Part shown: positions 41,176 through 56,278 of the stretch, piece by piece
How the letters are laid out: every line of letters starts with the position of its first letter
How positions within the stretch are numbered: position 1 is the stretch's first letter
Source of the DNA: Corallococcus sp. Z5C101001
Lineage (GTDB): Bacteria > Myxococcota > Myxococcia > Myxococcales > Myxococcaceae
Assembly (NCBI RefSeq): GCF_007352635.1
Contig: NZ_VKLU01000005.1
Span: 699,940-763,939 of the forward strand
Reading direction: 5' to 3'
Length of the DNA: 64,000 nucleotides
Translations under genes and position numbers: made by a program
The notes under the pieces: model-generated
The model's input: only the letters and a program-made list of their open reading frames with translations
Told to the model about the DNA's origin: nothing
The model's database searches: none

Positions 41176-41916
41176 TCAGGCCGCGTCGGCCGTGGCGGTG
41201 TGCTCCTCGTTCTCATTGAAGGCGATGAGGTAGCGCTCCAGGAAGTTCTTCGTCTTCAGCTCCACCTGACGGACGCGCTCGCGCGACACGCCCCAGCGCT
41301 GGCCCAGCTCCTCCAGGGTGAGCGGCTTGTCCTGCGTGAGCCGCTCCTGGAGGATGTCCCAGCCCAGGTCGCCGATGCGCTTGCGCACCTTCGCGAGGGC
41401 GTCCTGGATCTCCGTGTCCTGCTCGCGCGAGAGGAACGTCTCCTGCGGCGAGGGGCCGCCGTCCTCCAGCCGGTCGAGGAAGGTCGTCTCGCCCTCCTCG
41501 TCGATGGTGGCATCCAGCGAGAAGTCCACCATGCTGCCACGCTCCGCCTCGCCGCCGCGCACCTGGCTGCGGTTGTCCTTCAGATAGCGGGTGATGTAGG
41601 CGCGGATCCACCACACGGCATAGGTGGCGAAGCGCACGTTCTTCTTCGGATCGAAGTGCTCGATGGCCTTCATCAGGCCCACGTTGCCTTCCTGGATGAG
41701 GTCGTCCAGGCGGGCCCCGCGGTTGGCGAACTTCTTCGCGACCGCGACCACGAAAGCGAGGTTGGAGCTGGCGAGCGTCTGCCGGGCGCTCTCGTCACCC
41801 TTGCGGGCCTGGCGGGCCAGCTCATACTCCTGCTCACGGGTGAGCTGCTGGTGCCCCCCCAGGTGACGCAGGTAATGCGAAAGGCCCTCTGCCGCGTACT
41901 TCGTCGAGTTGGCCAT
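41176..41916 (-). CDS. Sigma-70 family RNA polymerase sigma factor (group 3, RpoH/SigB-like)
   Basis: Region 2 (DLIQEGNVGLMKAIEHFDP, RFATYAVWWIRAYI), region 4 (LTLEELGQRWGVSRERVRQVE); start at MANSTKY with GGAAGGA RBS. Confidence 0.85.
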   Translation of the reverse strand: MANSTKYAAEGLSHYLRHLGGHQQLTREQEYELARQARKGDESARQTLASSNLAFVVAVAKKFANRGARLDDLIQEGNVGLMKAIEHFDPKKNVRFATYAVWWIRAYITRYLKDNRSQVRGGEAERGSMVDFSLDATIDEEGETTFLDRLEDGGPSPQETFLSREQDTEIQDALAKVRKRIGDLGWDILQERLTQDKPLTLEELGQRWGVSRERVRQVELKTKNFLERYLIAFNENEEHTATADAA

Positions 41917-42146
41917 GATTTCCCGTCCTTCCGTTCGTAACTGCCGGACGCGATGAATCCCCCGACGAACCGCGTCCACCTGTCACTAGGACGCGCAACG
42001 ACGGAAAGGGTTTCTCATTCCTGCCAAGAAGGGCATTTCGCCCGCTTACCCTTGTCAAAAGCCCGTCACGCACTCGTCCCCGCGGGCCTCGAAAGGTGAG
42101 GGACGCGACGGGTGGGACAGCACCTACGTTTCCGGCCACGAATTCT

Positions 42147-43574
42147 TCAACGCTTGGGAGCGGGGAAGATTTTCTCGGGGTTGAGCAGCCCTGATGGATC
42201 AAAAAAGGCCTTCAGGCGTCGCTGGAGGTCCAGCAGCGCGGGGGCCTGTTCCAGCGCCAGATATTCCCGCTTGGCGTGGCCCACGCCGTGCTCACCGGTG
42301 ATGGTGCCCCCCAGGGAGACCGTCAGTTCCAACATCCGACGAAGGGCCTCCTCGACGAGCGGGCGTTGGTGGGGACCGTCGTAGAGGATGTTGGCGTGCA
42401 GGTTGCCGTCACCCGCGTGGCCATACGTGGCCACGGTGAGGCCCAGCGATTCTCCCATCTGCTTCAGCCGCTCGATGATCTCGGGAATTTTCGAGCGGGG
42501 GACCACGATGTCCTCCGAAATCTTCGCGGCCTTGAGCGCGCGCAATGCCGGAGAGATGACCCGGCGCGCGGCCCACAACCGTTCGCGCTGGGCATCGTCC
42601 TGAGCCACCAGGGTCTGGGTGGCCCCGTGCTGGTCGCAGATGCCTCCCAGGAGGTTCAGCTCGGCGAGGACGCCCTCGGGTGTGTTGCCGTCCACCTCGG
42701 CGATGAGGGCCGCCCCCGCGTCCGGGGGGAACTGGAAGCTGCCCCGGTGCACGATGGCCTGCACGGCCACCTCGTCGATGAGCTCCAGGCAGCGAGGCAG
42801 GATGCCGGCGGCGAGCACCGCGGAGACGCCCCGGGCCGCGGCCAGCACGGAGGGGAACACCACCAGCGCGGTCATCACCTGGCGCGGCAGGGGAATCAGC
42901 TGCACCGTGATTTCGGTGGCCACGCCGAGCGTGCCCTCGGAGCCGACGAAGAGCCCCACGAGGTCATAGCCCGCCACGCCCTTGATGGTGCGCCGGCCCA
43001 CGCGGAGCACCTCGCCGTCCGGGAGCACCCACTCCAGGCCGATGACGTAATCGCGGGTGACGCCGTACTTGAGGGCGCGGGGGCCGCCAGCGTTCTCCGC
43101 CACGTTGCCGCCCAGGGTGCAGAACTCCCAGGAGTTCGGGTCGGGTGGATAGAAGAGGCCCTGCGCCTCCACGGCCTTCATCAAGTCGCCCGTCACCACG
43201 CCGGGCTCCACCACCGCGGTCAGGTCCTCCGTGGAGATGGAGCGGATCCGGTTCATGCGCTCCAGGCTCACCGCCATGCCGCCCCTCAGGGGCAGCGAGC
43301 CACCGCTCTTGCCGCTGCGCGCGCCACAAGGGGTGAAGGGCACGCCGTGCGCCTGGCAGGCCTTGAAGATGGCGGACACCTGCGCGGTGGTCTCCGGCAG
43401 CAGGACGGCGTCCGGCGGATAGACGCCGCTGTCGGATTCATCGCGCGCATAGGCCGCAAGCGAATCCGCGTCGCGCTTCACCTGTCCCGCCGCCAGCACC
43501 TCCGACAAGGCCTCCAGCACCTGCGTCACGCGCTCGGGCGCGACCCGTTCGAAGGTCTGGGCGGCCGGATTCAT
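42147..43574 (-). CDS. FAD-linked oxidase (glycolate oxidase GlcD / D-lactate dehydrogenase family)
   Basis: FAD-binding PCMH domain (GARSGKSGGS), C-terminal FAD-oxidase_C; start at MNPAAQTF. Confidence 0.85.
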   Translation of the reverse strand: MNPAAQTFERVAPERVTQVLEALSEVLAAGQVKRDADSLAAYARDESDSGVYPPDAVLLPETTAQVSAIFKACQAHGVPFTPCGARSGKSGGSLPLRGGMAVSLERMNRIRSISTEDLTAVVEPGVVTGDLMKAVEAQGLFYPPDPNSWEFCTLGGNVAENAGGPRALKYGVTRDYVIGLEWVLPDGEVLRVGRRTIKGVAGYDLVGLFVGSEGTLGVATEITVQLIPLPRQVMTALVVFPSVLAAARGVSAVLAAGILPRCLELIDEVAVQAIVHRGSFQFPPDAGAALIAEVDGNTPEGVLAELNLLGGICDQHGATQTLVAQDDAQRERLWAARRVISPALRALKAAKISEDIVVPRSKIPEIIERLKQMGESLGLTVATYGHAGDGNLHANILYDGPHQRPLVEEALRRMLELTVSLGGTITGEHGVGHAKREYLALEQAPALLDLQRRLKAFFDPSGLLNPEKIFPAPKR

Positions 43575-44140
43575 CGCCAGGCCCCCGGGCGAGCGCCCAG
43601 CCGGGCCCACAGCTCGCGGCGCAGCGGGCCGTCACGGCGCAGGCGGCCCTCGTAGGCCTCCGCGTGGGTGACGGCGTCGCGCTGGTGGTCGGCCCGCAAC
43701 CGCAGACACGCCTGCTCCGCCTCCAGGATGCAGGCGGTGGCGGGGCTGTCGAGCACCCGCGCCAGGGACTGCGCCACTTCACGGGCCAGGTCCTCCTGGA
43801 GGATGAGCCGGTGCGCGAAGCAGTCCACCAGCCCCGCGAGCCGGCCGAAGCCCACCACGCGCGAGCCAGGCACATAGGCCACGTGCGCGCGGCCGGTGAA
43901 GGGCAGCAGGTGGTGAGGGCACATGGAGTGGAAGCGCAGGTCCGTCACCACGACCAGTTCGCCAGAGGAGTTGGGGGGCGCGGGATAGGTCTTGCCGAGC
44001 GCCTCCTCGGGCGTGCGGCCATAGCCGTCGAGGAAGCCGTTCATCCACACGTCGGCCACGCGCTTCGGCGTGTCCACCAGGTTCACGTCGTCCAGGGACA
44101 GGCCCGCGGCGGTGAGGAAGTCTCGGACCGCGCGGGCCAT
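43571..44140 (-). CDS. folE: GTP cyclohydrolase I
   Basis: FHSMCPHHLLPFTGRAHVAYVPG zinc-site signature; 4-bp overlap with glcD-like start; start at MARAVRDF. Confidence 0.85.
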   Translation of the reverse strand: MARAVRDFLTAAGLSLDDVNLVDTPKRVADVWMNGFLDGYGRTPEEALGKTYPAPPNSSGELVVVTDLRFHSMCPHHLLPFTGRAHVAYVPGSRVVGFGRLAGLVDCFAHRLILQEDLAREVAQSLARVLDSPATACILEAEQACLRLRADHQRDAVTHAEAYEGRLRRDGPLRRELWARLGARPGAWR

Positions 44141-44487
44141 GGCGGCGGAGTCGGGACGCGCGGCGCTGGGGGCCTGGGCCTGGGCCTGGGCGGCGGGGGC
44201 GCGGCGACGGGGGCGGGAGGGGGGCACGGGCGGCGGAACTCCTGGCGCGGGGGCCTGTGGGTGAGGCTCATCCAACCTAACCGATGCGGCCAGAAGGGAC
44301 GCCTGGAATGAAAACACCGTTCCCGTGTCCTCGTGTTTCAGGCGCGGCCTCCACGCCAGAGGTTCGTGCGTCGACGTTGAATCGCCACCCCGCCCCACCG
44401 TCCGTCACCGGGTCGCCCCCGAGACGTACGCCCCCTGCCTGCCTTGACACTCCCGGGGGCCGACAGTAAGCCAGTCGGGAACCCCAG

Positions 44488-44907
44488 ATGCTTTCGCGCG
44501 CCCACACCCTTGCCCGCCTCACCGCGATGCTGCTCGTCGCGCTCTGGGGTATCCAGCCGCTGGGGCTGGTGCTGCACGTGGAGCAGCACGCGCATCGGTT
44601 CTGTCCGCAGCACCAGACGTTCGAAGAGGACGCGCGGCGCGCGAACCCCTCGCTGTCCCGCTTCGCCGAGCGCATCTCCGTCATCGCGTCCGTCCCGAGC
44701 GCCGTGGCGGATGCACCGGGCCTCAACCACGAGACATGTCCGCTGCTCACGGCGGCCCCGCAGGCGACCGCGCCGCTCGCGGGAGAGACCCTCGCCGTCT
44801 CGGCGTGCGTGGAGAGCAACCACCCGCCCACCGCGCCGCCGCGCTCCTTCGCGCCGCTCGCCGTCCTCGACACCGCGCCCAAGGCCTCGCCTCCGACGCA
44901 CGCGTAG
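44488..44907 (+). CDS. Small membrane-anchored hypothetical protein with His/Cys motif (LHVEQHAHRFCPQH), paralog of 54068..54514
   Basis: N-terminal TM helix; motif and C-terminal tail (FAPLAVLDTAPKASPP) shared with the 54068 protein; weak RBS. Confidence 0.45.
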   Translation: MLSRAHTLARLTAMLLVALWGIQPLGLVLHVEQHAHRFCPQHQTFEEDARRANPSLSRFAERISVIASVPSAVADAPGLNHETCPLLTAAPQATAPLAGETLAVSACVESNHPPTAPPRSFAPLAVLDTAPKASPPTHA

Positions 44908-45000
44908 TCCGCGTGTCGTGTCCGTGAAGCAGGTCATTGGTCGACGGTCGTCGCGGGGCATCGTGCTCCCCGGCCGTCCGGTATCGAGGAGCAGTCACCC

Positions 45001-46368
45001 GTGTCATTTCTTCCGCGCAGGCATTCCCGCGCCCTTGCCGTCATGCTCGCCGCTCAGCTGTCCGCGAGCGCCGCCTGGGCCCAGCAGTCATCGCCCCCTT
45101 CCACCGCCGCCCCACCCGCCTCCGAGTCCCCACCCGAGCCCGCGCCGGCCAGCGATACGCCGGCCCTGAGCCCAGAGGAGATGTCGGAGATCGAGAAGGC
45201 GCTGGGCTCCGACACGAGCACCCGCGCGCGCCCCTCCGGGAGCACGTCCCCGGCGTCGCCCACCGCCACCAACGACTCGGGCGTGACGCCGCTCAAGCTG
45301 CCCAACGCCATCTCCAGCGGCACCAACTTCCTCAACCTGAGCTTCATCCTGGACATGGCGCTGGCGGCCTTCTCCAGCAAGGAGCCCCTGCAGGGCGGAG
45401 GACACGACCCGACGCAGAACGGCTTCAACCTCCAGCAGCTGGAGCTGTCCATCGGCTCGGTGGTGGATCCGTACTTCCGCTTCGACAGCAACATCGTCTT
45501 CAGCCAGTTCGGCGTCGAGATCGAGGAGGCCTACGCCACCACGTTGGACCTGCCCGCGAACCTCCAGGTGCGCGCGGGCCAGTTCCTCACCCGCTTCGGG
45601 CGGATCAACTCCACCCACCCGCATGCGTGGGACTTCGTCGACCAGCCCTTCGTCATGAGCCGCGTGTTCGGCGCGGAGGGCAACCGGGGCCTGGGCGTGG
45701 AGGCGTCCTGGCTCACGCCGCTGCCCTGGTACGTGGAGGTCGTCGGCAGCGCCACCGACGCCAAGGGAGAGGCCACGGCGCGCAGCTTCTTCGGCGCGAC
45801 CCCGGAGCGCGTGCTGTCACCGCTGGACTTCCAGCTCACGGGCGCGGTGAAGCAGTTCTTCCCGCTGTCGGACGACCTGTCCCTGCTGTGGGGCCTGTCC
45901 GCCGCGGCCGGGCCCAACGCCACGGGCTACCGCAACCACACCAGCCTCTACGGCACGGACGTCTACGTGAAGTTCCGGCCCATCACGGAGCAGAGCGCGC
46001 AGCAGCTGGTGTTCCAGGCGGAGGTCATCTACCGGCGCCGCCAGGTCCCGGAGGACGTGCTGTCCGACTGGGGCGGCTACGCGCAGACGGTGTGGCGCTT
46101 CTCCAACCGCTGGGCCACGGGCGTGCGCTACGAGTTCGGCACGCCCGCGAAGACGCAGGAGGGCCGCGTCGCGAATGATCCGCTCGACCCCGAGTGGATC
46201 GCCAACCGCCAGCGCATCAGCGCGTCCGTGACGTTCTGGCCCACCGAGTTCTCCCGGCTGCGCCTGCAGGCCGCCACGGACCGCGTGGGCTGGCGCGCGA
46301 CGCCGGACTACTCGGCCTTCCTCGCGCTTGAAGTCGTGACCGGCGCCCACGGTGCCCATGCTTTCTGA
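45001..46368 (+). CDS. Outer-membrane beta-barrel (porin-like) protein, encoded between the 44488 membrane protein and znuA
   Basis: Signal peptide ...LSASAAWAQ; Pro/Ser-rich linker; alternating amphipathic beta-strand pattern; C-terminal aromatic residue (…HAF). Confidence 0.6.
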   Translation: MSFLPRRHSRALAVMLAAQLSASAAWAQQSSPPSTAAPPASESPPEPAPASDTPALSPEEMSEIEKALGSDTSTRARPSGSTSPASPTATNDSGVTPLKLPNAISSGTNFLNLSFILDMALAAFSSKEPLQGGGHDPTQNGFNLQQLELSIGSVVDPYFRFDSNIVFSQFGVEIEEAYATTLDLPANLQVRAGQFLTRFGRINSTHPHAWDFVDQPFVMSRVFGAEGNRGLGVEASWLTPLPWYVEVVGSATDAKGEATARSFFGATPERVLSPLDFQLTGAVKQFFPLSDDLSLLWGLSAAAGPNATGYRNHTSLYGTDVYVKFRPITEQSAQQLVFQAEVIYRRRQVPEDVLSDWGGYAQTVWRFSNRWATGVRYEFGTPAKTQEGRVANDPLDPEWIANRQRISASVTFWPTEFSRLRLQAATDRVGWRATPDYSAFLALEVVTGAHGAHAF

Positions 46369-46390
46369 TCCCTTCTTCCGGAGCCCTTCC

Positions 46391-47314
46391 ATGCGTTCCC
46401 TTCGCCTGTTCGCGGCCCTGTGCGCCGCCGTCGTCTGTTTCGCCGCTGCTCCCGCGCATGCGGAGCTCAAGGTCGTCGCCACCCTCCCGGACCTCGCCGC
46501 GCTGGCGAAGGCCGTGGGCGGGGACAAGGTGGACGTGACGTCCCTGGCGCTGCCCACGCAGGACCCCCACTTCGTGGACGCCAAGCCGAACCTGGCGCTC
46601 GCGCTCAACCGCGCGGACCTGCTCATCGCCGCGGGCCTGGACCTGGAGATCGGCTGGCTGCCCACGCTCCAGGTGGGCGCGCGCAACAACCGCATCCAGA
46701 CGGGCAACGACGGCTACCTGGACGCGTCGCGGCTGGTGAACCTCCAGGAGGTGCCCACGACGCAGGTGGACCGCAGCCAGGGCGACGTGCACCCCGGCGG
46801 CAACCCGCACTACCTCTATGATCCGCGGCAGGCGCTGGCGGTGGCGCGCGGCATCGAGGCGCGCATGTCCCAGCTGGATGGGAAGAACGCGGCCACCTAC
46901 AAGGCGAACCTCGCGAAGTTCACGCAGGAGCTGCAGGCCGCGCAGGCGGGCTGGGAGAAGCGGCTCGCGGGCCTCAAGGGCGTGCCCGTCATCGCGTACC
47001 ACCGCACGACGGCGTACCTGCAGGACTGGCTGGGCTTCACCACCATCGCGTTCCTGGAGCCCAAGCCGGGCATCCCGCCGAACCCGTCCCATGTCGCGCA
47101 GGTGCTGGCCCAGGGCAAGGCGCGCAAGGCGCGGATGGTGCTGAAGGAGGACTACTACCCGGACAGCATCGCGAAGCTCGTGGCGTCGAAGATCCCCGCG
47201 TCGCTCGTCACGCTTCCCGGCGGCACGGACTTCCGCGGAGGCCAGACGTACCTGCAGCGCATGGACCTGATGGTGAGCCGGCTGGAGCAGGGCCTCACCG
47301 GGAAGGGGGAGTGA
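46391..47314 (+). CDS. znuA: Metal (Zn/Mn) ABC transporter substrate-binding protein (ZnuA/TroA family)
   Basis: Signal peptide; ELKVVATLPDLAALAKAVGGDKVDV, PHFV, cluster A-I SBP architecture; start at MRSLRLF. Confidence 0.8.
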   Translation: MRSLRLFAALCAAVVCFAAAPAHAELKVVATLPDLAALAKAVGGDKVDVTSLALPTQDPHFVDAKPNLALALNRADLLIAAGLDLEIGWLPTLQVGARNNRIQTGNDGYLDASRLVNLQEVPTTQVDRSQGDVHPGGNPHYLYDPRQALAVARGIEARMSQLDGKNAATYKANLAKFTQELQAAQAGWEKRLAGLKGVPVIAYHRTTAYLQDWLGFTTIAFLEPKPGIPPNPSHVAQVLAQGKARKARMVLKEDYYPDSIAKLVASKIPASLVTLPGGTDFRGGQTYLQRMDLMVSRLEQGLTGKGE

Positions 47315-47318
47315 CGCC

Positions 47319-48182
47319 ATGAAGCGCTTCGCATCCAAGGCCTGGCTGATCCCCCTCGCGCTCGTGTCCGGCTGTGCGTTCGACGCGGGCGAGAACTTCG
47401 CGGTGCTGGAGCCCACCGTCGAGGCCTCCTACACACCGCTGCCCCGCCGCGACGCGGGTGACGGCTACCAGGCGCTCGCCTCCGACTTCCAGCTGCGCAT
47501 GGACTCCGGCGCGGTGAGCCTGGGCAGCATCGACCTGCTGGCCAGCTCCGGCGGCGGGGGCACCACGACGTTCGACCCGTCCTCTCCGCCCCCGGGCTAC
47601 ACGCTGTGCCACAACGGGCACTGCCACCGCGATGACGGGGCGCTGGTGGACTACGCGGACATCGAGGCGGAGCTGGGCGGCGGTGGCGGCAGCACCACCA
47701 CCACGGTGGCCAACCTGCCCGTACAGACCGAGTTCGACCTGCTCACCCCCCAGACCGTGGGCGTCACCTGCCGGCCGGGCTGTGAGCTGGGACGAACGAC
47801 GCTGTCCCGCGGACGCTGGTCCGTCACCGCCCTGCGGCTGAGCGGCAGCGTGCGCGATGGCCGCGTTCCGGCGCGCTTCGCGGGGGCGCTGCCCTTCCGC
47901 TTCACCGCGGCGGCGACGGGGACGGAGGCCACGCCGGTGGTGCTGCTCACCGGCGACCTGGACGTGCCCGCCGACCGGGACAACAAGCCGCGCGTGTCGC
48001 TGGGGCTGAAGCTGGCGCTGACGCCGACGCTCTTCGACGCGGTGGACTGGTCCGCCGTGACGGTGGGCGCGGACGGCGTCATGGACCTGGACGCGCCCGC
48101 GAACGCGGCGGTGCGCGCGGCGCTGCTGGAGAAGGTGGCCCAGGTGAGCCCCACCGCGGAGGTGACTCGTGGCGCATGGTGA
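47319..48182 (+). CDS. Lipoprotein with CHNGHCH metal-binding-like motif and Gly/Thr-rich segments
   Basis: Lipobox LALVSGC; motif YTLCHNGHCHRDDG; inserted between znuA and znuC. Confidence 0.6.
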   Translation: MKRFASKAWLIPLALVSGCAFDAGENFAVLEPTVEASYTPLPRRDAGDGYQALASDFQLRMDSGAVSLGSIDLLASSGGGGTTTFDPSSPPPGYTLCHNGHCHRDDGALVDYADIEAELGGGGGSTTTTVANLPVQTEFDLLTPQTVGVTCRPGCELGRTTLSRGRWSVTALRLSGSVRDGRVPARFAGALPFRFTAAATGTEATPVVLLTGDLDVPADRDNKPRVSLGLKLALTPTLFDAVDWSAVTVGADGVMDLDAPANAAVRAALLEKVAQVSPTAEVTRGAW

Positions 48183-48990
48183 GCACGAGACGGAGCTGGA
48201 CCGGGGGCACCGCGCCGCGCCGCCGCCAGAGCCGGGCGAGCCGCTGCTGAAGTGCGAGCAGCTCGTCATCGGCTATGGAGGCAAGGACATCCTACCGCCC
48301 ATGGACCTGGTGGTGCGCCGCCGGCAGTTCGTGGCGGTGGTGGGCCGCAACGGCTCCGGCAAGAGCACCTGGTTCAAGACGCTGCTGGGCCTCATCCCGC
48401 CGGTGTCCGGGAGGATTGCCCTGGGCGCGCCGCACATCCGCAGCGCGTACGTGCCGCAGATGTCCTCCATCGACTCGCTCCTGCCAGTGCACGCGCGTGA
48501 GCTGACCGGGTGGGGACGGCTGTCCGGGTGGAACTTCCTCCGGCCGTTCCCCAGCCGCGCGGATCGCCACAAGGTGGAGGCAGCGCTCGACACGGCGGGC
48601 GCGCGCGCCATCGCGAAGCGGCCCTTCCGCGACCTGTCCGGTGGCGAGAAGCAGCGCGCGTTGCTGGCGCGGGTCATCGCCACCGAGGCGGACGTGGTGC
48701 TCCTGGATGAACCCACCGCGGCGATGGACGCCGTGGCGGAGAAGCAGACGATGCTGCGGCTGTGCGCGCTCGCGCACGACCGGGGCCTGGGCGTGGTGGT
48801 GGTGAGCCACGACATGTCCGTCGCCGCCGAGCACGCCGACGTCATCCTCTTCGTGGACCGCGAGCACCGCTGCTTCGTCATGGGCGATGCACGCACCGTG
48901 TTCTGCCACCCCGCCTTCCGCCGCCAGTACGGCGACGACTACTGCCACAGCGCGCCCCAGGGACCCCATCGTGGAAACAACCCTGCTTGA
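48169..48990 (+). CDS. znuC: Metal ABC transporter ATP-binding protein (ZnuC-like)
   Basis: Walker A GRNGSGKST, signature LSGGEKQRA, Walker B VVLLDEP, H-loop SHDM. Confidence 0.8.
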   Translation: MAHGEHETELDRGHRAAPPPEPGEPLLKCEQLVIGYGGKDILPPMDLVVRRRQFVAVVGRNGSGKSTWFKTLLGLIPPVSGRIALGAPHIRSAYVPQMSSIDSLLPVHARELTGWGRLSGWNFLRPFPSRADRHKVEAALDTAGARAIAKRPFRDLSGGEKQRALLARVIATEADVVLLDEPTAAMDAVAEKQTMLRLCALAHDRGLGVVVVSHDMSVAAEHADVILFVDREHRCFVMGDARTVFCHPAFRRQYGDDYCHSAPQGPHRGNNPA

Positions 48991-49843
48991 GCCCTCGAAG
49001 TGGGAACAGTTCCAGGCGGGCTGGGAGCTGTTCCGCGACCCCATCCTCTGCGCGCTCATCGCCGGGTGCGTGCTGGGCTTCCTCAGCGTCTACGTCGTGC
49101 TCCGCCGCATGGTGTTCGTCAGCGCGGCGGTGACGAACACCGCGGGCCTGGGCGTGGCGCTGGCCTTCTTCGCGGAGATCCACCTGGGCGTCCATGTGGA
49201 CCCGCTGGTGGGCGCCGTGGTGCTGTCGGTGGCGGCCACCCTGCTGCTGATGGTGGAGCCCTCGCACCTGCGGCTGTCACGGGAGAGCCTGCTGGGGTGC
49301 GCGTTCGCGTTCGCGGGCGGCGCGGCCATCCTCGTGGGTGACCGCATCGCGCAGGAGGCCCACGACATCCAGGGCATCCTCTTCGGCACCGCGGTGCTGG
49401 TGACGCCGGATCAACTCCACGCCGTGGCGGTGGCGGGCGCGGTGCTGATGGTGCTGCACCTGTGGTGGTACCGGGGCATCACCTTCGTGAGCTTCGACCG
49501 CGTCGGCGCCACCGTGCAGGGGCTGCCGGTGCGGCTGCTGGACACGGTGTTGATGGTGTCCATCGGCATCATGGTGGGCGTGTGCGCGCGGGCCCTGGGC
49601 GCCCTGCCCGTCTTCGCGTTCTCCACGCTGTCGGCCATCGCCGCGCTGGTGCTGGACCTGCGGCTGCCGTGGACCTTCTTCACCGCCACCGTGCTGGGCG
49701 GCATCGCGGGCGCGGGCGGCTACCTGTTCGCGTACGTCTACGACTTCCCGGTGGGCGGCTCGCAGACCGTCCTGTCCGGGGTGCTGGTGCTGCTGATGAT
49801 GCTCGTGCGGCTGGTGCGCCTGCCCTTCCAGCGCAAGGCGTGA
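48971..49843 (+). CDS. znuB: Metal ABC transporter permease (ZnuB-like)
   Basis: GTG start overlapping znuC end; 8-9 TM helices; ABC-3 family composition. Confidence 0.75.
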   Translation: METTLLEPSKWEQFQAGWELFRDPILCALIAGCVLGFLSVYVVLRRMVFVSAAVTNTAGLGVALAFFAEIHLGVHVDPLVGAVVLSVAATLLLMVEPSHLRLSRESLLGCAFAFAGGAAILVGDRIAQEAHDIQGILFGTAVLVTPDQLHAVAVAGAVLMVLHLWWYRGITFVSFDRVGATVQGLPVRLLDTVLMVSIGIMVGVCARALGALPVFAFSTLSAIAALVLDLRLPWTFFTATVLGGIAGAGGYLFAYVYDFPVGGSQTVLSGVLVLLMMLVRLVRLPFQRKA

Positions 49844-50489: not shown

Positions 50490-52229
50490 TCAGCCTCCGT
50501 GAACGGTCCAGGGCCCTCCCCCACCCCGAGGGACGGGCCCGGTGTCCACCGGCGCATCGGGCACTCTCCGGAGCGCGGCGCGTCCCCTGCACCCGCCGGA
50601 CGTGAAGCCCCGCGCGCGCTGCAGGCCTGGCAGGTGCGGATCCGCGTCCCGCCACAGGTCCAGCACGGCCTCGAAGTCGCGCGCCGCCTCGGACATGCAC
50701 GAGCAGGCCACATGGGCCTCCGCGACCAGCAGCATGCTGTGGCCACACCCGGGCCGCTCCCCGGCCCGCTCCAGCGCCAGCTCCAGGGCCTTCTCCTCGC
50801 GGCCGAAGCGCAGGCGGATCCGGGCCAACGTTTCACGGGGCGGGCGGCAGAAGAGCGCGGGCCCCACGGGGCGCAGGCGGCGCTCCAGGCGCAGGGCCCG
50901 CGTGAGCGCGGCCTCCGCGCGGCCGGAGTCACCCCGGCGCGCATCCAGCGTGCCTCGAAGCTCCTGCGCGGCGACCTCCACCGTGCGCGCCACGTCGCGG
51001 GGACACAGGGCGCGGCCCTCGGAGCGGGGCGCCTCCGACAGCGCGGGCACCAGCGCATCCAGCATCAGGCACGCACGCTCCACGTCACCCAGCCGCCCCG
51101 TCTCCAGGGCGCAGGCCGCGCGCGCGTACAGGCGCACGGCGTCGCGCAGCCCCTTCTCCGCGACGGTGGCGTTGTCGCCCAGCTCCAGGGGGACCTCCGC
51201 CGCCGCGCGGCAGAAGCCAAAGCGCAGGTGCGCGGCCACCAACGTGGTCGCGGCGAAGAGCACCGCCTGGGGCCGGGAGCCCGCGGCGTCCACCCGCTGG
51301 CGCAGCTTGCGGGCCCAGACCTGCGCGCCGCGGTACTGCCCCACCTCCGCGCAACCCTCGCTCAACAGGCGCAGGGCGGGATCCGCGCTCGGCGCGACAT
51401 CCAAGGGCAGCGACTCACGGGCGACGTAGGCGTCATCCGCCGCGACCGCCGCCTCCAGGCAGCGGTTCGCCTCCAACCCTCGCCCCAGGCGCAGGAGCAG
51501 GCGCCCCGAGGCGAGCAACGCGGGGCTCCCCGCGGGCACGAGCGACGGGAGCAGCTCCGCGCTCTCACGCGCCATCTCCGGCCGGGAGCTGGGCAGCCAG
51601 GCCTGGACCCAGGCCATGTGCACCCCGGCGTGGCGCGGGTGCGCGCGCAGCAGGTCCCGCAGGATGAGCTGCGCGTAGGGTTGTCCCTGGCCAGGGCGCC
51701 CGTCGGATTCGTAGCCGTCCAGGAGGAAGCCCGCGAGCAACAGGCGGGGCTCGGGCTCCTGGGGGAAGCGGTCGGTGAGGCACTCCATCTCGCGCACGAA
51801 GGCCGGTCTGCCATTGGCGGGCCCCTTGTCCGCGAGGAGGCTCGCGGCGACCACCAGCCGCTGCTCCAGGTCGGTGGCGCCCTCCGCCAGGGTGAGCGCC
51901 TTGCGGCTGGCCTCCGCGCGGTCCGGCGTGAAGCGCGCGCCCACGCCCCGGGCGAGCGTGAGCCCCCACCACGCCATGGCGAGAGAAGGATCCTGGCGCG
52001 CGGCCTCCGCGAAGGCGCGGCGGGCCTCCAGCGCCCAGCCCAGGTGCAACAGGCGCAGGCCCTGATTGAAGTACGCCTGCGCCAGGGGGACTCGCGTCGT
52101 CACTGGCAGCTGGGCGTCTCCCAACCCTTCACACAGCGGCGGCGGGGGGAGGGCCTCATCCGGGAGGTCCTCCCACGCGACGTGGGAATGCACGGACGGC
52201 GCATCGGCTCGGAACAGGCGTGCCAGCAT
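50490..52229 (-). CDS. TPR-like repeat hypothetical protein (Ala/Arg/Leu-rich)
   Basis: ATG at 52227-52229 with GGAGGA RBS and coupling to upstream gene stop; repeated helical AxxA/LxxA patterns; no catalytic motif. Confidence 0.45.
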   Translation of the reverse strand: MLARLFRADAPSVHSHVAWEDLPDEALPPPPLCEGLGDAQLPVTTRVPLAQAYFNQGLRLLHLGWALEARRAFAEAARQDPSLAMAWWGLTLARGVGARFTPDRAEASRKALTLAEGATDLEQRLVVAASLLADKGPANGRPAFVREMECLTDRFPQEPEPRLLLAGFLLDGYESDGRPGQGQPYAQLILRDLLRAHPRHAGVHMAWVQAWLPSSRPEMARESAELLPSLVPAGSPALLASGRLLLRLGRGLEANRCLEAAVAADDAYVARESLPLDVAPSADPALRLLSEGCAEVGQYRGAQVWARKLRQRVDAAGSRPQAVLFAATTLVAAHLRFGFCRAAAEVPLELGDNATVAEKGLRDAVRLYARAACALETGRLGDVERACLMLDALVPALSEAPRSEGRALCPRDVARTVEVAAQELRGTLDARRGDSGRAEAALTRALRLERRLRPVGPALFCRPPRETLARIRLRFGREEKALELALERAGERPGCGHSMLLVAEAHVACSCMSEAARDFEAVLDLWRDADPHLPGLQRARGFTSGGCRGRAALRRVPDAPVDTGPVPRGGGGPWTVHGG

Positions 52230-52239
52230 GATGTCCTCC

Positions 52240-52863
52240 TCACGCTCCGGTCATCGGAGCGGCGTGGTGTTGCACTCCGGCGTCGGTCGCGCGTACGCGC
52301 GCGGCCATCCGCTTCCAGGCGTTCGACAACTCCTCCGCGGGAATGGGTGAGGCCTTGCGACGCGCCGCCAGGCACTCGCGCCGCCAGGCCAGGCCCACGT
52401 CGCGGGCCACCCACGCCTCGTACTCCGCGAGCCAGTCCGCCAGCAGCGCGAGCCCCGCCCGCGCCGCCCGGCGCTCCGCCCCGGAGGCCGCGTCCCGCCG
52501 AGGGCCCACGTCCTCCGCGCGGAACGCCGTGCCGCATGCCCCCTCCACCCACCGGGGCACGAAGCCATCGCGCGGCACGAAGATGGCGGCGCCGCACGTG
52601 TCGCACAGCGCGCCGAACCCCCACAGCGTGAGGCGCCCGCCGTCCGCGAGCCGTCCCTGGTAGGCGCTCTGCCCCTCCACGCCCGGAGGCCGGGGTTCGC
52701 GGACCAGGCCGTGACGGAGCAGCACGTTGCCGTCCGGACAGCGCACGTCCTGCCCCAGACACCACATGGCCACGTCGAACAGACGGTCGCCGTCGCGGCG
52801 AACGTCGCAGGGGAGCAGGGAACCATCACCGCCAGGGAAGACCTTGGACATGGGGCGCCTCAC
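52240..52863 (-). CDS. Cys-rich hypothetical protein (CPDGNV...CDTCG...GACGT)
   Basis: ORF ending 11 nt before the TPR gene start; RBS for downstream gene embedded in its 3' end; no homolog recognised. Confidence 0.4.
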   Translation of the reverse strand: MRRPMSKVFPGGDGSLLPCDVRRDGDRLFDVAMWCLGQDVRCPDGNVLLRHGLVREPRPPGVEGQSAYQGRLADGGRLTLWGFGALCDTCGAAIFVPRDGFVPRWVEGACGTAFRAEDVGPRRDAASGAERRAARAGLALLADWLAEYEAWVARDVGLAWRRECLAARRKASPIPAEELSNAWKRMAARVRATDAGVQHHAAPMTGA

Positions 52864-52874
52864 GGAAGGCCTCG

Positions 52875-53303
52875 CTAGGAAGCGGTCTTCTTCGCGGTGG
52901 GGCCCACGCGCGCGGCCACGTCGCCGAAGAGCGCCCGGGCATCCACGGCCGCGGCGCCGCTCTTCGCGAGCAGCGCGTTGACGGCGCGCACCAGCTTGGC
53001 GCGCACGCGAGGGGACAGCGGCTTGTCCTCGCGCGCGGCGGCGAGTTGCTGCGCGCTCAGCCCCCGGCCGCTGCGCGGCTTGCCCAACCCCAGCTCCGCG
53101 TACGACTTCTGCTGCGGCTCCTTGTCTCGGCGGCGCGTGGAGCGCTTGCGCTCGAGGACGCGGTCCTCCGACGTCTGGGCTTCGAGCTGCGCCGAGCGAC
53201 GCAGCAAGAGCGCCGGGGAGATCTTCTGGTGTTCGAGGAACTGCTGGAAGGTACCCATGGGGGGCTCCGTGAGGAGAGGGGCGGAAGGGGTCGGGCTACT
53301 CAT
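52875..53303 (-). CDS. Small basic hypothetical protein
   Basis: ORF overlapping the lipoprotein gene end by 8 nt; Arg/Lys-rich; start uncertain (53303 or internal MGTFQQF). Confidence 0.3.
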   Translation of the reverse strand: MSSPTPSAPLLTEPPMGTFQQFLEHQKISPALLLRRSAQLEAQTSEDRVLERKRSTRRRDKEPQQKSYAELGLGKPRSGRGLSAQQLAAAREDKPLSPRVRAKLVRAVNALLAKSGAAAVDARALFGDVAARVGPTAKKTAS

Positions 53304-53790
53304 GGGCGTGGTCGTGAGCGCCCGACTCCTCGATGACGAGCGACACCGAGGAGAGGGTCGAGGGGCCGAAGGTGAGCGTGTGCGTGCCCACCTTGAGGGG
53401 CACGACGTGACGGCCTTGGATGTCCGAGCAGAGCGCGGAGCTGTTCGTGCTCTCCTCGAACTCCACCGGCGCGCCGCTGCCGTTGGTGACCTTCACCGGC
53501 ACCGGGGCGCTGGTGAAGAGGACGTAGTCGGTGGCCTCGGCGACGGCGAAGGACACCGTGCCGCCCTTGCCTCCCGCGACGTCCACGAGCGCGATGTCGT
53601 AGCGCGTGTGGTTGTTGCTCACGGACGGGCCCTGGCCCGAGGCCGCCGCGGTGACGTTGACCGCCGGGCCCTTCTGGAGGTGCTCGCAGCCCTCCTCGTC
53701 GACGGAGCCTTCGTCTTCGGCGTCGGAACCACAACCCACGGCGAGGAGCGCGGTGGACAGCAACAGGGCGGACAGCAGCTTCTTCTTCAT
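53296..53790 (-). CDS. Lipoprotein with His-rich C-terminus (HDHAHE)
   Basis: MKKKLLSALLLSTALLAVGCGSD lipobox; ATG at 53788-53790; C-terminal His cluster suggests metal binding. Confidence 0.55.
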   Translation of the reverse strand: MKKKLLSALLLSTALLAVGCGSDAEDEGSVDEEGCEHLQKGPAVNVTAAASGQGPSVSNNHTRYDIALVDVAGGKGGTVSFAVAEATDYVLFTSAPVPVKVTNGSGAPVEFEESTNSSALCSDIQGRHVVPLKVGTHTLTFGPSTLSSVSLVIEESGAHDHAHE

Positions 53791-54067
53791 GATGGGAACT
53801 CCATGGACAAGGGATGGACTGCGGGAACTCCAGCCTCCGTGGGCGCACGGCGCACACCTCCCCGACAGGGAGGGTCCGCGAGGAACCGGACGGGACTGGA
53901 AGGCGGAGCCGCGAGGCGAAGCGCGCGAGGGTGCGTGGCCCGAGGCCTCCGCGTGCGCCCTCTCCGTCAGTGGACGGGAACGCGCACGCCGAAGCCACCG
54001 GAGGCCACGACACCTCCCGCCCCGTGGAGACACGCCGGGCGGAGACGACGGGCTTCGACGGCGGAGA

Positions 54068-54514
54068 TCAGGTGCGCGGCGGTGATGACTTGGGCGCGAG
54101 TCTCAGCAGCGCGACGGGGGCCGCGTGGAAGCGGAACACCGCCAGCGCGGGGCTGGAGCGCGTGGAGACGGCGGCCACGACGGGCGCCGACCCGGCCGGA
54201 GGCGGGGCCTCGCGGCGGAAGAAGGCGTGGTGGCAGTGAGCCTCCGCACCATGGGGCGAAGCCTTCGCCACCGGCGCCCGCGCCACGCGCGCGTCGTCGA
54301 AGGAGACCTCCTCCTCCGGCGGGCCTTCGGACGCCGAGGCCTCGCTCACGTGCATCACGTCCCCGTGCTCCAGGCACGTCGTGTGCTGCACGAGCGCGAA
54401 GTGGAGCACGCTGCCCACGTACACCAGCACGCACACGAGCACCCACGGCAGCGCCAGCAGGCGCGACGGGGAGCGACTCGCATGGGTCGGGCGTTGAAGG
54501 CGGCTCACGTCCAC
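54068..54514 (-). CDS. Small membrane-anchored hypothetical protein with His/Cys motifs (LHFALVQHTTCLEHGDVMH; HCHH), paralog of 44488..44907
   Basis: TM helix LLALPWVLVCVLVYVGSV; conserved C-terminal tail APVALLRLAPKSSPP. Confidence 0.45.
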   Translation of the reverse strand: MDVSRLQRPTHASRSPSRLLALPWVLVCVLVYVGSVLHFALVQHTTCLEHGDVMHVSEASASEGPPEEEVSFDDARVARAPVAKASPHGAEAHCHHAFFRREAPPPAGSAPVVAAVSTRSSPALAVFRFHAAPVALLRLAPKSSPPRT

Positions 54515-54736
54515 TCAATCTCGAAAAAGCAACTGAGTTGTTTTAAGCGACCTCCCCGTCCGGGCGCAAGCGAGGACCCGGCACCGGGCGATGGGGCCCG
54601 AAGCCCGGAGTGGCGGGCGCCGCGCCCGTCCGCCTGGACGCTCCTCGGACGGGACGCGGCGGGGGACCGCCTGGGGAAGCGCCCGGCGAAGCGCGGGTTG
54701 TGGACCCACGAGCCCCAGGGGTCGTAGGTTCCGCGC

Positions 54737-56206
54737 GTGCACGAGCTCATGGATGTCCTGCGCAGGCAGGCACACTATTTTGGACCGGAGCTGGCGAAGA
54801 CCGCCTACCAGCGCGGCCTCGCGGTGACGAAGCCGGATGGCAGCACCCAGCCCATCCCCATCACCGCCACGCCCGTCATCCTGGACGCGGCGGAGATCCA
54901 ACGCCGCGCCCTCCTGTCCGCGAAGCTGGCCTCCGCCACGCTGAAGATGGCCCGCGCGGTGCTGGGCGGACCCGACGCCCACACGCTCCTGGGCAGCCTG
55001 TCGCCGCTGGAGCGCGCCCTGGCCGAGCGCACGTGGGAGGCGAGCCGCAAGCTCGTCACGACGCGCGTGGACTACTTCGTGTCCGGCGGCCAGCCGTGGG
55101 CGCTGGAGGTCAACGCCACCATCCCGGCCATGCAGGGCTATTCGGACATCGCGGCGCGCACCTTCATCGAGGTCGTGGCGCGGCACCTGCGCTACCCGGA
55201 AAAGGGGCTCGCGGCGCTGCTCACGCTCAACGGCAACAACGCGCTGGCGCTCTACCGCGCGCTCCTGGACGGCTACGCGGCCGAGCGCGACGGGAAGATG
55301 CCGGACACGGTGGCGCTGCTGTGCCGCAAGAACGACGCGCAGGTGACGGAGCTGCGCTGGCTGTGCGAACGCTTCCGCGAGTTCGGCGCGGACGCGGACA
55401 TCGTGCACCCGGAGGACGTGTCCGGGGAGGACGCCTTCACGGCGAACAGCAAGAAGTACGACCTCGTCTACCGCCACCTGTTCGTGCGCCGTCTGGAGCA
55501 GTCCCCCGCTCCGTGGATGGAGGACTTCCTGGGCACGGTCCCCGGGAAGAAGGCCGTGTTCCTCAACCCGCCCGCCTCGCAGGTGGAGGTGAAGACGACG
55601 TTCGCGCTGCTGTCGCAGGCGGTGACGGACGCCGCGCTCGCCGAGCGCGCGGGCCTCACGCCGGAGGAGCTGGAGGCGGTGCGCGCGGCGGTGCCGTGGA
55701 CGCGCCCCTTCCGCCACGGACCCGGCGTGGGTCCCGACGGCGCGCGCGTGGACGACATCGTGGCGCGCGTGGCCCAGGAGCCCGCGCGCTTCGTGCTCAA
55801 GCGCGCCTGGGACTACGGCGGCAAGGCGGTGTTCCTGGGCCGCTCGGTGGGCACGGTGCCCTACGAGGAGCGCGTCAAGGGCGCCTACGGTGAATCCAAG
55901 ACGTGGGCCCAGCTGTGCGAGCACGCCGCCACGGACCCCCAGGGTGGCGGCTTCGTCGTCCAGGAGGTGGTGGACACGCAGCCGGAGGATCACCTGCTGT
56001 GCGGGCAGAACAGCGTGCTCCCCACGTCGTTCTTCGTGGACTACTCGGCCTATGCGTCCGTGGGGCTGGCGAAGCAGCCCGCGTGGGGCGGGGTGTGCCG
56101 TGGGTCCATGTCGGAGATCGTCAACATCGTGGGCGGCGGAGGCGTGCTGCCCCTCATCACGACGGAAGTCGCCTCGAAGCTTTTGCTGGCCTGGAAGGCG
56201 CTTTAA
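54737..56206 (+). CDS. ATP-grasp superfamily protein (circularly permuted / glutathionylspermidine-synthase-like), putative
   Basis: ATP-grasp-like stretches VDYFVSGGQPWALEVNATIP and FVLKRAWDYGGKAVFLG; size about 489 aa typical of the circularly permuted ATP-grasp type 2 family; assignment tentative. Confidence 0.5.
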   Translation: MHELMDVLRRQAHYFGPELAKTAYQRGLAVTKPDGSTQPIPITATPVILDAAEIQRRALLSAKLASATLKMARAVLGGPDAHTLLGSLSPLERALAERTWEASRKLVTTRVDYFVSGGQPWALEVNATIPAMQGYSDIAARTFIEVVARHLRYPEKGLAALLTLNGNNALALYRALLDGYAAERDGKMPDTVALLCRKNDAQVTELRWLCERFREFGADADIVHPEDVSGEDAFTANSKKYDLVYRHLFVRRLEQSPAPWMEDFLGTVPGKKAVFLNPPASQVEVKTTFALLSQAVTDAALAERAGLTPEELEAVRAAVPWTRPFRHGPGVGPDGARVDDIVARVAQEPARFVLKRAWDYGGKAVFLGRSVGTVPYEERVKGAYGESKTWAQLCEHAATDPQGGGFVVQEVVDTQPEDHLLCGQNSVLPTSFFVDYSAYASVGLAKQPAWGGVCRGSMSEIVNIVGGGGVLPLITTEVASKLLLAWKAL

Positions 56207-56278
56207 AGCGTCCTCCAGGGGTCCTCGTTAGACAGAGGCCGGGGCTCGGTGGGCCCGGTCCGAAAGGAAACGAAACAC

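Follow-up and report, generated by a model that had tools for sequence, protein, structure and literature searches.

What do two small, unannotated membrane-anchored proteins do at the head of operons that seem to serve metal handling? This question is raised by a stretch of 64,000 nucleotides from Corallococcus sp. Z5C101001 (Myxococcota; NCBI RefSeq assembly GCF_007352635.1, contig NZ_VKLU01000005.1, positions 699,940 to 763,939 of the forward strand), which we call the window and from whose first letter all positions are counted. Gene A (44488-44907, plus strand) encodes a protein of 139 amino acids (aa) and is followed by genes for a barrel-like protein and a ZnuABC-type ATP-binding cassette (ABC) importer, and gene B (54068-54514, minus strand) encodes a paralogous protein of 148 aa at the start of a second operon. 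Our analysis suggests that the products of A and B are probably regulatory leader proteins, translated from upstream open reading frames (ORFs) of the CruR/CutF type, and not stable enzymes or chaperones. We favour this reading because their architecture matches that of the published family point by point: a His/Cys motif is held at a fixed, ruler-like distance from a Pro-Pro motif near the stop codon, conservation is concentrated at few elements and comes with no predicted globular fold, and the genes stand first in their operons. Synonymous-site selection at the C-terminal motif, a covarying hairpin in the intergenic RNA, a weak co-linear similarity to DUF2946 and the likely identity of the metal as zinc argue in the same direction.

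Two paralogous families with a fixed motif spacing

The window has a GC content of 70% and long spurious ORFs overlap all of its real genes, and A and B might on this account be chance ORFs whose resemblance is compositional; a BLASTP alignment of the two covers only the C-terminal 15 residues (E 0.001). However, the three codon positions have GC contents of 0.73/0.55/0.91 in A and 0.76/0.55/0.91 in B, with the in-frame third position (GC3) at 0.91 as in the neighbouring genes, and both proteins have full-length homologues (about 80 for A and about 75 for B, down to ~35% identity) in which His/Cys positions are invariant and around which gene order is conserved. The Smith-Waterman score of A against B was 78, compared to 37 +/- 7 for shuffled sequences (1/2000 as high), and hhalign aligned the profiles of the two families over 129 columns (probability 95%, E 2.5e-8). 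Thus, the similarity is real and goes beyond Ala/Pro low complexity. A and B are real genes and distant paralogues that come first in their operons, and their origin as chance ORFs, against which the 3,608 clusters of the wider family also speak, has a negligible probability. B also has an alternative GTG start at 54508, which is the start used by its closest database homologue.

The homologues of A and B are annotated as "hypothetical", and all named ones come from Myxococcaceae or Archangiaceae. Neither protein has a relative in Pfam, NCBIfam or PDB. A profile of the A and B families, searched against 1.84 billion representative proteins, retrieved the 3,608 clusters at E <= 1e-3 and 1,379 clusters at E <= 1e-10, all of them 120-160 aa long and matched end to end. 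Among the best 120 matches, none carried a precomputed Pfam domain and every named one belonged to Myxococcota. A tblastn search of a family member against plasmids gave no match.

Both proteins begin with an Arg-containing N-terminus followed by a hydrophobic stretch of ~19 residues. AlphaFold2 (AF2), run on the family alignments, predicted a confident helix at residues 2-33 of A (predicted local distance difference test, pLDDT, 90-98) and at residues 16-46 of B (pLDDT >90). In A, this helix and the hydrophobic stretch LTAMLLVALWGIQPLGLVL mark a signal-anchor/transmembrane helix at about residues 11-29 (44518-44574, plus strand). Hydrophobicity, the positive-inside rule and the precedent of CutF point to an N-in, C-out topology, and with this predicted topology both proteins carry the export signal typical of the DUF2946/CruR family. 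After the helix comes a membrane-proximal His/Cys cluster, which reads H30-x3-H34-x-H36-R-F-C39-x2-H42 in A (44575-44613, plus strand; invariant in the A family) and H38-x5-H44-T-T-C47-L-E-H50-x4-H55 in B (54350-54403, minus strand; H38, H44, C47 and H55 invariant). Furthermore, each protein has a second invariant Cys with an adjacent His, which the first-pass annotation of the window had missed. This 'ruler' motif is H81-E-T-C84 in A (44728-44739, plus strand) and H93-C94 in B (54233-54238, minus strand). Invariant residues are H30, H34, H36, R37, C39, H42 and C84 in the A family and H38, H44, C47, H55, H93 and C94 in the B family; across both families (A numbering) they are H30, H36, C39 and C84 together with the C-terminal segment L127-x-x-A-P-K-x-S-P-P, and H42 is nearly invariant. 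H36, C39, H42 and C84 are also invariant among 43 diverse family members.

The C-terminal segment contains APKASPP in A (residues 130-136; 44875-44895, plus strand) and APKSSPP in B (residues 140-146; 54077-54097, minus strand), a putative ribosome-arrest motif that ends 3 residues before the stop in A and 2 residues before it in B. We determined spacing and tail length in orthologues taken from 54 genome loci, 50 of A and 16 of B. The ruler Cys is separated from APKxSPP by 45 or, rarely, 46 residues in 49/50 orthologues of A and 16/16 of B, and throughout the collected family the Cys lies 45-47 residues before the motif in 345 of 371 proteins (93%). The length of this linker is fixed whereas its sequence is poorly conserved, and the distance from the first His/Cys cluster to the tail varies from 73 to 104 residues. 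APK-x-SPP itself is present in 371/373 collected family proteins, the remaining two being truncated. The Pro-Pro is followed by 3 residues in 47/50 A and by 2 residues in 16/16 B orthologues, and across the family this tail has 1-4 residues in 92% of proteins. Conservation clusters in the last 10 residues and at the metal ligands. The first-pass annotation had placed both genes at these coordinates and had called them real and paralogous on the basis of a shared transmembrane helix, a His/Cys cluster after the membrane exit and a near-identical C-terminal tail, with Ala/Pro low complexity as the caveat. Genes, paralogy and all three features are borne out, the His/Cys positions are kept in the orthologues, and the tail proves to be the most conserved part of the proteins. 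The tail appears better explained, moreover, as a ribosome-arrest motif of the CruR/CutF kind than as mere evidence that the genes are real.

The constraint on the tail reaches down to codon choice. In the A family, the first Pro of the Pro-Pro is encoded by CCT in 34/50 and by CCA in 8/50 orthologues, compared to 3.4% and 3.1% in the local background. P131 is CCC in 49/50 (46% in the background) and S134 is TCG in 43/50 (29% in the background), which gives the family a codon string of CCC-AAG-GCC-TCG-CCT-CC over the motif. In the B family, the motif Ser is encoded by TCT in 9/16 orthologues against a background of 2.5%. Synonymous-site selection, rare codons included, is located exactly at the APKxSPP segment.

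Beyond the helix, AF2 predicted ~90 residues of low-confidence coil (predicted template modelling score, pTM, 0.36 for A and 0.30 for B), with a pLDDT of 54-75 at residues 50-139 of A and mostly <50 at residues 54-129 of B. In A only, a short beta-hairpin carrying H36/C39/H42 reached a pLDDT of about 80. No compact folded metal-binding domain, as a metallochaperone would have, was predicted by AF2 in A or B, a prediction that is no proof of disorder. These models bear on a different explanation, namely that A and B are stable proteins which are anchored in the membrane and bind metal in the periplasm (a metallochaperone, a buffer or an accessory subunit passing zinc among the barrel, the lipoproteins and ZnuA), with APKxSPP as a docking or sorting motif. 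The invariant His/Cys ligands on the predicted periplasmic side, the strict co-occurrence with metal-motif lipoproteins and ZnuA and the small beta-hairpin at HRFC..H in A would suit such proteins, and a released leader might have a second job. However, no globular domain is predicted for them, and a linker that keeps its length and not its sequence is what a ruler should have and would be unusual in a binding protein. Conservation is strongest, and codons are selected, at a Pro-Pro situated 2-3 codons before the stop; the gene invariably opens its operon and has a sizeable gap behind it, and CutF, the closest characterised analogue, is degraded upon export (PMC9973294). We regard stable binding proteins as an unlikely explanation, though one with a real share of the probability.

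Operon position and regulatory regions

Gene A comes first, and the order leader A, barrel, znuA, znuC, znuB is kept, in 43/43 loci with enough sequence. B is followed by a gene for a lipoprotein ending in HDHAHE in 17/18 loci. Both leaders are thus placed as in the CruR family, that is, first in an operon and ahead of an intergenic gap. Behind A this gap measures 93 nt in the window and 64-105 nt among orthologues; the corresponding values for B are 277 nt and 257-292 nt. The association with importers extends to distant members of the family (~33% identity), of which we inspected seven on long contigs. Five of the seven stand first in a complete ZnuA / ABC ATPase / ABC-3 operon, in two cases with a Pfam-less protein of 414-449 aa at the barrel position; one heads a ZnuA / ABC-3 operon with a fragmented ATPase call, and one heads a gene for a TonB-dependent receptor, which is the context of CruR. 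An eighth distant member, from a fragmented assembly, had nothing recognisable downstream.

The ZnuA-type substrate-binding protein of operon A (46352-47314, plus strand; PF01297, E 1.9e-48) has Zn-specific ZnuA proteins as its nearest solved relatives (2ogw, E 2.3e-16), and three positions that we take to be the Zn-ligand His residues of E. coli ZnuA are His in the alignment of the window's ZnuA. Furthermore, the His-rich sensor motifs of the leaders, with two Cys, would be more typical of Zn(II) than of Cys-only Cu(I) sites. From the ZnuA relatives, the matching ligand positions and the His-rich motifs, zinc is probably the metal of operon A.

The gene neighbourhoods also bear on whether A and B could be zinc-dependent anti-sigma (ZAS-like) factors, from which a sigma factor would be set free by a change in metal or redox state. 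Such factors are brought to mind by the membrane-anchored His/Cys cluster, and a gene of the sigma-70 family is present in the window (41176-41979). However, this gene encodes regions 1.2, 2 and 4 and is not of the extracytoplasmic function (ECF) type, and it lies 2.5 kb from A on the other strand, beyond two unrelated genes. No co-transcribed ECF sigma gene stands beside A or B: the neighbours of A are folE, which adjoins it in 39/39 loci, and the barrel gene, and those of B are genes for a 489-aa protein and the lipoprotein. Moreover, there is no anti-sigma domain before the helix, which only ~10-17 residues precede, and the His/Cys cluster comes after the helix. The motif is H-x(3-5)-H-x(1-2)-C-x2-H and not H-x3-C-x2-C, and there is no Pfam anti-sigma match. 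An anti-sigma function is extremely improbable. Precursors of a ribosomally made, modified metal-binding peptide (a metallophore), with the C-terminus as core or recognition sequence, would likewise be small Cys/His proteins near metal-uptake genes, and several neighbours of A and B belong to no known family. However, no maturation enzyme, protease or exporter could be recognised in either operon; a signal-anchor of 19 residues and a leader as long as ~140 aa would be atypical, and the fixed spacing from Cys to Pro-Pro and the proximity of the stop would have no rationale. We consider such precursors highly improbable.

The operon positions given by the first-pass annotation are conserved (A in 43/43 loci, B in 17/18), and the association with znu genes that it proposed to check is found at every one of the 43 A loci. 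Its comparison with ZAS factors fails on the missing ECF sigma neighbour, the missing anti-sigma domain and the wrong motif and topology; the nearest sigma gene is the non-ECF gene 2.5 kb away. A metallochaperone or delivery protein, its other suggestion, agrees poorly with one helix followed by low-confidence coil and with the lack of Pfam, NCBIfam and PDB relatives. As for its broader proposal of an uncharacterised metal-sensing or delivery module, the sensing half is retained as the best reading of genes tied to metal handling, and the delivery half, for which no fold is predicted, is not.

Upstream of A lies a promoter-like site with TTGACA at 44444-44449, a 17-nt spacer and TAAGCC at 44467-44472 (44444-44472, plus strand); a short leader separates it from the ATG at 44488. 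The pattern CCTTGACAC-N17-TAGAGC/TAAGCC is found upstream of A in essentially all orthologous loci, across genera, and the site scores below the strict consensus of the promoter scanner. Upstream of B, a second promoter-like site (54541-54569, minus strand) consists of TTGCGC at 54569-54564, a 17-nt spacer and TTAAAA at 54546-54541, and CTTGCR-N17-TTA(A/C)AA is kept in orthologues. Promoter function is in both cases a reading of the sequence. An AT-rich 19-bp near-palindrome, AAAACAACT-C-AGTTGCTTT (54526-54544), covers the putative -10 region and transcript start of B. It is unique in the window, conspicuous in DNA of 70% GC and conserved within Corallococcus only, and could be a genus-specific operator. 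No shared operator such as a Zur-like box was found upstream of A and B, and no conserved operator-like box was seen upstream of A across genera.

Between A and the barrel gene, a consensus fold of 28 orthologous intergenic regions contains a conserved RNA hairpin, GACGG...CCGTC (44943-44978, plus strand), that lies 7 nt upstream of the Shine-Dalgarno sequence of the barrel gene. In this hairpin 93.8% of cells are paired, compared to 84.6% in shuffles (0/500 as high) and 33-52% when the partners are slid, and the covariation score is 0.39 versus 0.23. The stem is GC-rich and present in all clades, with differing stem sequences, and may act as a pause, an attenuator or a stability element. The intergenic region between B and the lipoprotein gene (53791-54067, minus strand) has conserved blocks that include a C-rich, G-poor block (CCTTCCAGTCCC) and a GGAG Shine-Dalgarno sequence. 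Its local C/G ratio rises to 1.75 and its fold is modestly more stable than that of shuffles (z = -2.0). The C-rich block would suit a Rho-utilisation site, which it does not prove.

Known nascent-chain sensors and a possible mechanism

Metal sensing by a nascent leader that is exported co-translationally has been demonstrated so far for copper only, in CruR (Bordetella pertussis Bp2923) and CutF (Rhodobacter capsulatus), two upstream ORFs in which stalling at a C-terminal proline motif controls the next gene (PMC9426467; PMC9973294). Proteins of this family have <150 aa, an export signal (>95%), a CXXC or Cys/His motif and a spacing of ~45 residues; their RAPP motif lies ~3 residues from the end, and they come first in metal-homeostasis operons with a notable intergenic gap (PMC9426467; PMC9973294; bioRxiv 10.1101/2025.02.05.636593). 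In CruR, 45 residues separate CXXC and RAPP, and changing this spacing by 5 residues impairs regulation (PMC9426467). In vitro, CruR was shown to undergo arrest while two Pro codons occupy the P and A sites; this requires the Arg of RAPP, whose replacement by Ala abolishes arrest, and only RSPP is tolerated in part (PMC12992588).

A and B are like CruR in their length of ~140 aa, their N-terminal export signal and the predicted lack of much structure, and above all in a metal motif that stands 45 residues before a Pro-Pro located ~3 residues from the C-terminus, which is the spacing of the CruR family. They are first in a metal-uptake operon and are followed by a sizeable intergenic region, one distant relative precedes a TonB-dependent receptor, and the logic expected of an importer would be the same, with the downstream genes off when metal is present. 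In contrast to the CXXC of CruR, A and B have H-x-x-C or H-C and in addition the membrane-proximal H-x-H-x2-C-x2-H cluster, and their tail is A-P-K-x-S-P-P instead of R-A-P-P, with the essential Arg missing in register. If the spacing is counted to the x-S-P-P register instead, it is 3 residues longer than in CruR. Furthermore, A precedes a ZnuABC-type importer, a porin-like barrel and lipoproteins, whereas CruR precedes a TonB receptor and a PepSY protein. A and B further differ in the probable metal, zinc, and in the phylum, Myxococcota, and their intergenic regions of 64-105 nt (A) and ~277 nt (B) compare with 162 nt in CruR.

By analogy, A and B would share with CutF the sensing of a periplasmic metal during co-translational export, a Cys/His motif combined with a C-terminal proline motif, and action in cis on the next gene. 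They differ from it in that Shine-Dalgarno masking does not exceed controls, in having a signal-anchor with no obvious cleavage site, and in heading an uptake operon. The 'CutF-like' collection comprises 5,334 proteins in 29 clusters (Ozturk et al. 2023 PMC9973294; 2025 bioRxiv 10.1101/2025.02.05.636593), some of which have His-containing or His-only motifs and non-copper neighbours (HupE/UreJ) (PMC9973294; bioRxiv 10.1101/2025.02.05.636593), and the sensing of other metals was therefore anticipated. The main text of that survey makes no mention of zinc, ZnuA, ABC transporters, porins or Myxococcota, and the names Myxococc*, Corallococcus, Archangium and Stigmatella are all absent from Table S1 of the CruR study (>2,000 homologues). 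Our full-text literature search yielded no paper tying arrest peptides to zinc uptake or to the regulation of myxobacterial znu genes.

Two further systems offer themselves for comparison. Arrest peptides that monitor secretion, such as SecM (RAGP) and ApdA/ApdP (RAPP) (Sakiyama 2021; Fujiwara 2024/2025; PMC12992588), are also small exported or membrane proteins encoded upstream of the regulated gene, with a Pro-Pro core near the stop and a conserved segment of ~10 residues N-terminal of the core, and the release principle proposed for A and B, a pulling force on the nascent chain, would be the same. However, those peptides monitor Sec/YidC, regulate the localisation machinery, need the core Arg and have no metal-ligand motifs or Cys ruler. 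The R-[AG]-P-P / R-A-G-P core of this class is not found in A and B, whose core is K-x-S-P-P. Zur-repressed znuABC operons have the same cargo, a ZnuA-type binding protein with an ABC ATPase and an ABC-3 permease, and are controlled by a Fur-family repressor on a palindromic box, whereas here a leader ORF is interposed at every locus and no shared operator-like box lies upstream of A.

A and B are not formal members of DUF2946 (PF11162), as the profile match, the CXXC and the RAPP are all missing from them. The position of the CXXC holds H-[DE]-x-C or x-x-H-C (HDHC, DDHC, EAHC, HEAC, HETC and others), that is, one Cys with a neighbouring His, and that of the RAPP holds A-P-K-x-S-P-P, with no Arg in register and a matching distance to the stop. 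The link of the two families to PF11162 appears weak but co-linear, and is drawn from their architecture and from hidden Markov model matches below threshold, which were obtained for 4/32 members of the B family, 1/27 of the A family and 4/43 of the wider family (best E 0.0011). In the member with the best bit score, P0153, residues 15-123 are co-linear with positions 4-111 of the 117 positions of PF11162. A homologue of B, P0097, bears the UniRef label DUF2946.

On these grounds we propose the following mechanism. Each operon would be transcribed from its sigma-70-like promoter, whose sequence is conserved. The leader would be translated first, and its signal-anchor helix would bring the nascent chain to the Sec translocon in an N-in/C-out orientation, so that the first His/Cys cluster would come to lie at the membrane's periplasmic face. 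At L-x-x-A-P-K-x-S-P-P, 2-3 codons before the stop, the ribosome would pause when its P and A sites contain the two Pro codons, by analogy with CruR. The second motif, H-x-x-C or H-C, would at this point be 51 residues from the peptidyl-transferase centre and just emerging; the 51 residues from the ruler Cys to the first Pro correspond approximately to the combined length of exit tunnel and translocon. Metal, most likely Zn(II) for operon A, would be enclosed by both His/Cys elements, and the resulting folding or pulling force could alter the duration of the arrest. How long the arrested ribosome dwells at the leader's 3' end would then set downstream expression via the intergenic region; this could work through termination that depends on Rho or a hairpin, the mode of CruR, or through translation initiation, the mode of CutF. 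The logic of CruR, in which metal relieves the arrest and the downstream genes are turned off, seems the likelier direction for operon A because this operon encodes an importer. We tentatively suggest, as a possibility with less than even chances, that the APKxSPP proteins are regulatory nascent chains of a new, zinc-sensing class: their two-part His/Cys site, half of it at the membrane and half emerging while the ribosome pauses at K-x-S-P-P, might close on periplasmic Zn(II), tune the arrest and set the expression of ZnuABC and the porin post-transcriptionally, with no Zur-type repressor.

Several observations weigh against A and B being leaders of this type. Every step of the mechanism after transcription is one that we infer, and the motif differs from the validated RAPP: it has an [A/S]-S-P-P register with the Lys one position further upstream, and its competence for arrest is putative. 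PF11162 does not match A or B even at E <= 10; the 9 sub-threshold matches, all weak, come from three alignment scans with 102 member scans in total (some proteins were scanned repeatedly), and the best bit score of 17.1 stays below the gathering threshold of 23.7. In operon B (50490-53790, minus strand), none of the genes has a Pfam family, and therefore no metal can be assigned to it. No Rfam family and no canonical terminator or promoter was found in either intergenic region, and the fold of the A intergenic region is not unusually stable compared to shuffles (mean z 0.05). Masking of the Shine-Dalgarno sequence in the style of CutF was not supported, with a pairing probability of 0.71 for that of the barrel gene versus 0.70 when the upstream region was shuffled, and neither was a hairpin across the stop codon of A, which was seen in many minimum-free-energy folds and reached 0.60 versus 0.59 in composition controls. 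Pairing of the rare CCT/UCG codons, as an anti-Shine-Dalgarno sequence (CCUCC/CCUCG), with CGAGGAG was rejected (0.13 versus 0.12 in synonymously recoded sequences, p = 0.11). Finally, a membrane-tethered, disordered His/Cys peptide could itself be a functional metal ligand. Neither an anti-Shine-Dalgarno sequence nor a hairpin accounts for the codon constraint at APKxSPP, for which selection for a rare tRNA-Pro is a putative alternative.

If A and B are leader proteins as we propose, the principle known from CruR and CutF would extend to zinc, to ABC-type importers, to another phylum and to K-x-S-P-P in place of R-A-P-P or PPP. They would give a function to a large unannotated family and would explain how zinc uptake is controlled at loci with no evident conserved repressor box, and if they indeed sense zinc in the way tentatively suggested above, neither zinc nor an ABC importer would have had a reported arrest peptide before them. 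The strict 45-residue ruler makes the family a natural test of a question debated for CruR and CutF, namely by what means a ligand bound outside the ribosome comes to exert force on the nascent chain. For annotation, "hypothetical protein" genes in front of znu operons would have to be treated as cis-regulatory leaders.

Neighbouring genes

In operon A, the leader is followed by the gene for a signal-peptide protein of 455 aa, a probable outer-membrane beta-barrel (45001-46368, plus strand) with a weak Pfam BBP2 match (E 0.003, below the cut-off). Its Shine-Dalgarno sequence GAGGAG (44986-44991) and GTG start (45001) lie at 44986-45003 on the plus strand, and the arrangement GAGGAG-N9-GTG is kept in orthologues. 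The barrel gene stands between the leader and znuA in 43/43 loci, and the Pfam-less proteins of 414-449 aa at this position occur in the distant loci L060 and L062. The barrel is a candidate for a zinc-specific outer-membrane channel that is independent of TonB. Downstream of znuA, a gene for a 287-aa lipoprotein with a CHNGHCH motif (47319-48182, plus strand) and no Pfam, NCBIfam or PDB match lies between znuA and znuC in 45 loci, and the distant Znu operons headed by family members have an unannotated protein of 157-284 aa in its place. This lipoprotein is possibly a new periplasmic component of zinc handling. The ABC transporter ATPase (48169-48990, plus strand; PF00005) is ZnuC/AztA-like, with an NCBIfam AztA match (E 1.9e-49) below the cut-off, and the ABC-3 family permease (48887-49843, plus strand; PF00950, E 1.6e-36) is ZnuB-like. 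As listed, the znuB ORF overlaps znuC by 104 nt (48887-48990) and its first ~30 residues are unlike a permease; because of this overlap the true start of znuB is probably downstream of 48887.

Divergent from leader A in the 39/39 loci mentioned above is folE, encoding GTP cyclohydrolase I (43571-44140, minus strand; PF01227, E 2.8e-46). As listed, the folE ORF reaches to 44398 through a long N-terminal extension, rich in Pro and Ala and probably untranslated; the true start is likely near 44140, with an upstream region of ~350 nt shared with A. FolE of type I is a zinc enzyme, and its fixed pairing with a zinc-uptake operon may for this reason be meaningful.

In operon B, the gene directly after the leader encodes the lipoprotein of 164 aa ending in HDHAHE (53296-53790, minus strand), identified from its ORF and lipobox and lacking a Pfam, NCBIfam or PDB relative. 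It is followed on the same strand by genes for a 142-aa protein (52875-53303), a Cys-rich protein of 207 aa (52240-52863) and a 579-aa protein (50490-52229). The operon is syntenic across Corallococcus, Myxococcus, Pyxidicoccus, Hyalangium and some Archangiaceae. In one metagenome-assembled genome (locus L029, about 17700-20122), a B-type leader stands directly before a homologue of the 579-aa protein, which is tetratricopeptide repeat-like, and the lipoprotein and the 142-aa and 207-aa proteins are absent; a leader can thus be coupled to different first genes. Divergent from B, the 489-aa protein (54737-56206, plus strand) has no Pfam match and shows 69-97% identity over the captured portions in related loci, and behind it lies a gene for a membrane protein of the Bax1-I family (56249-56992).

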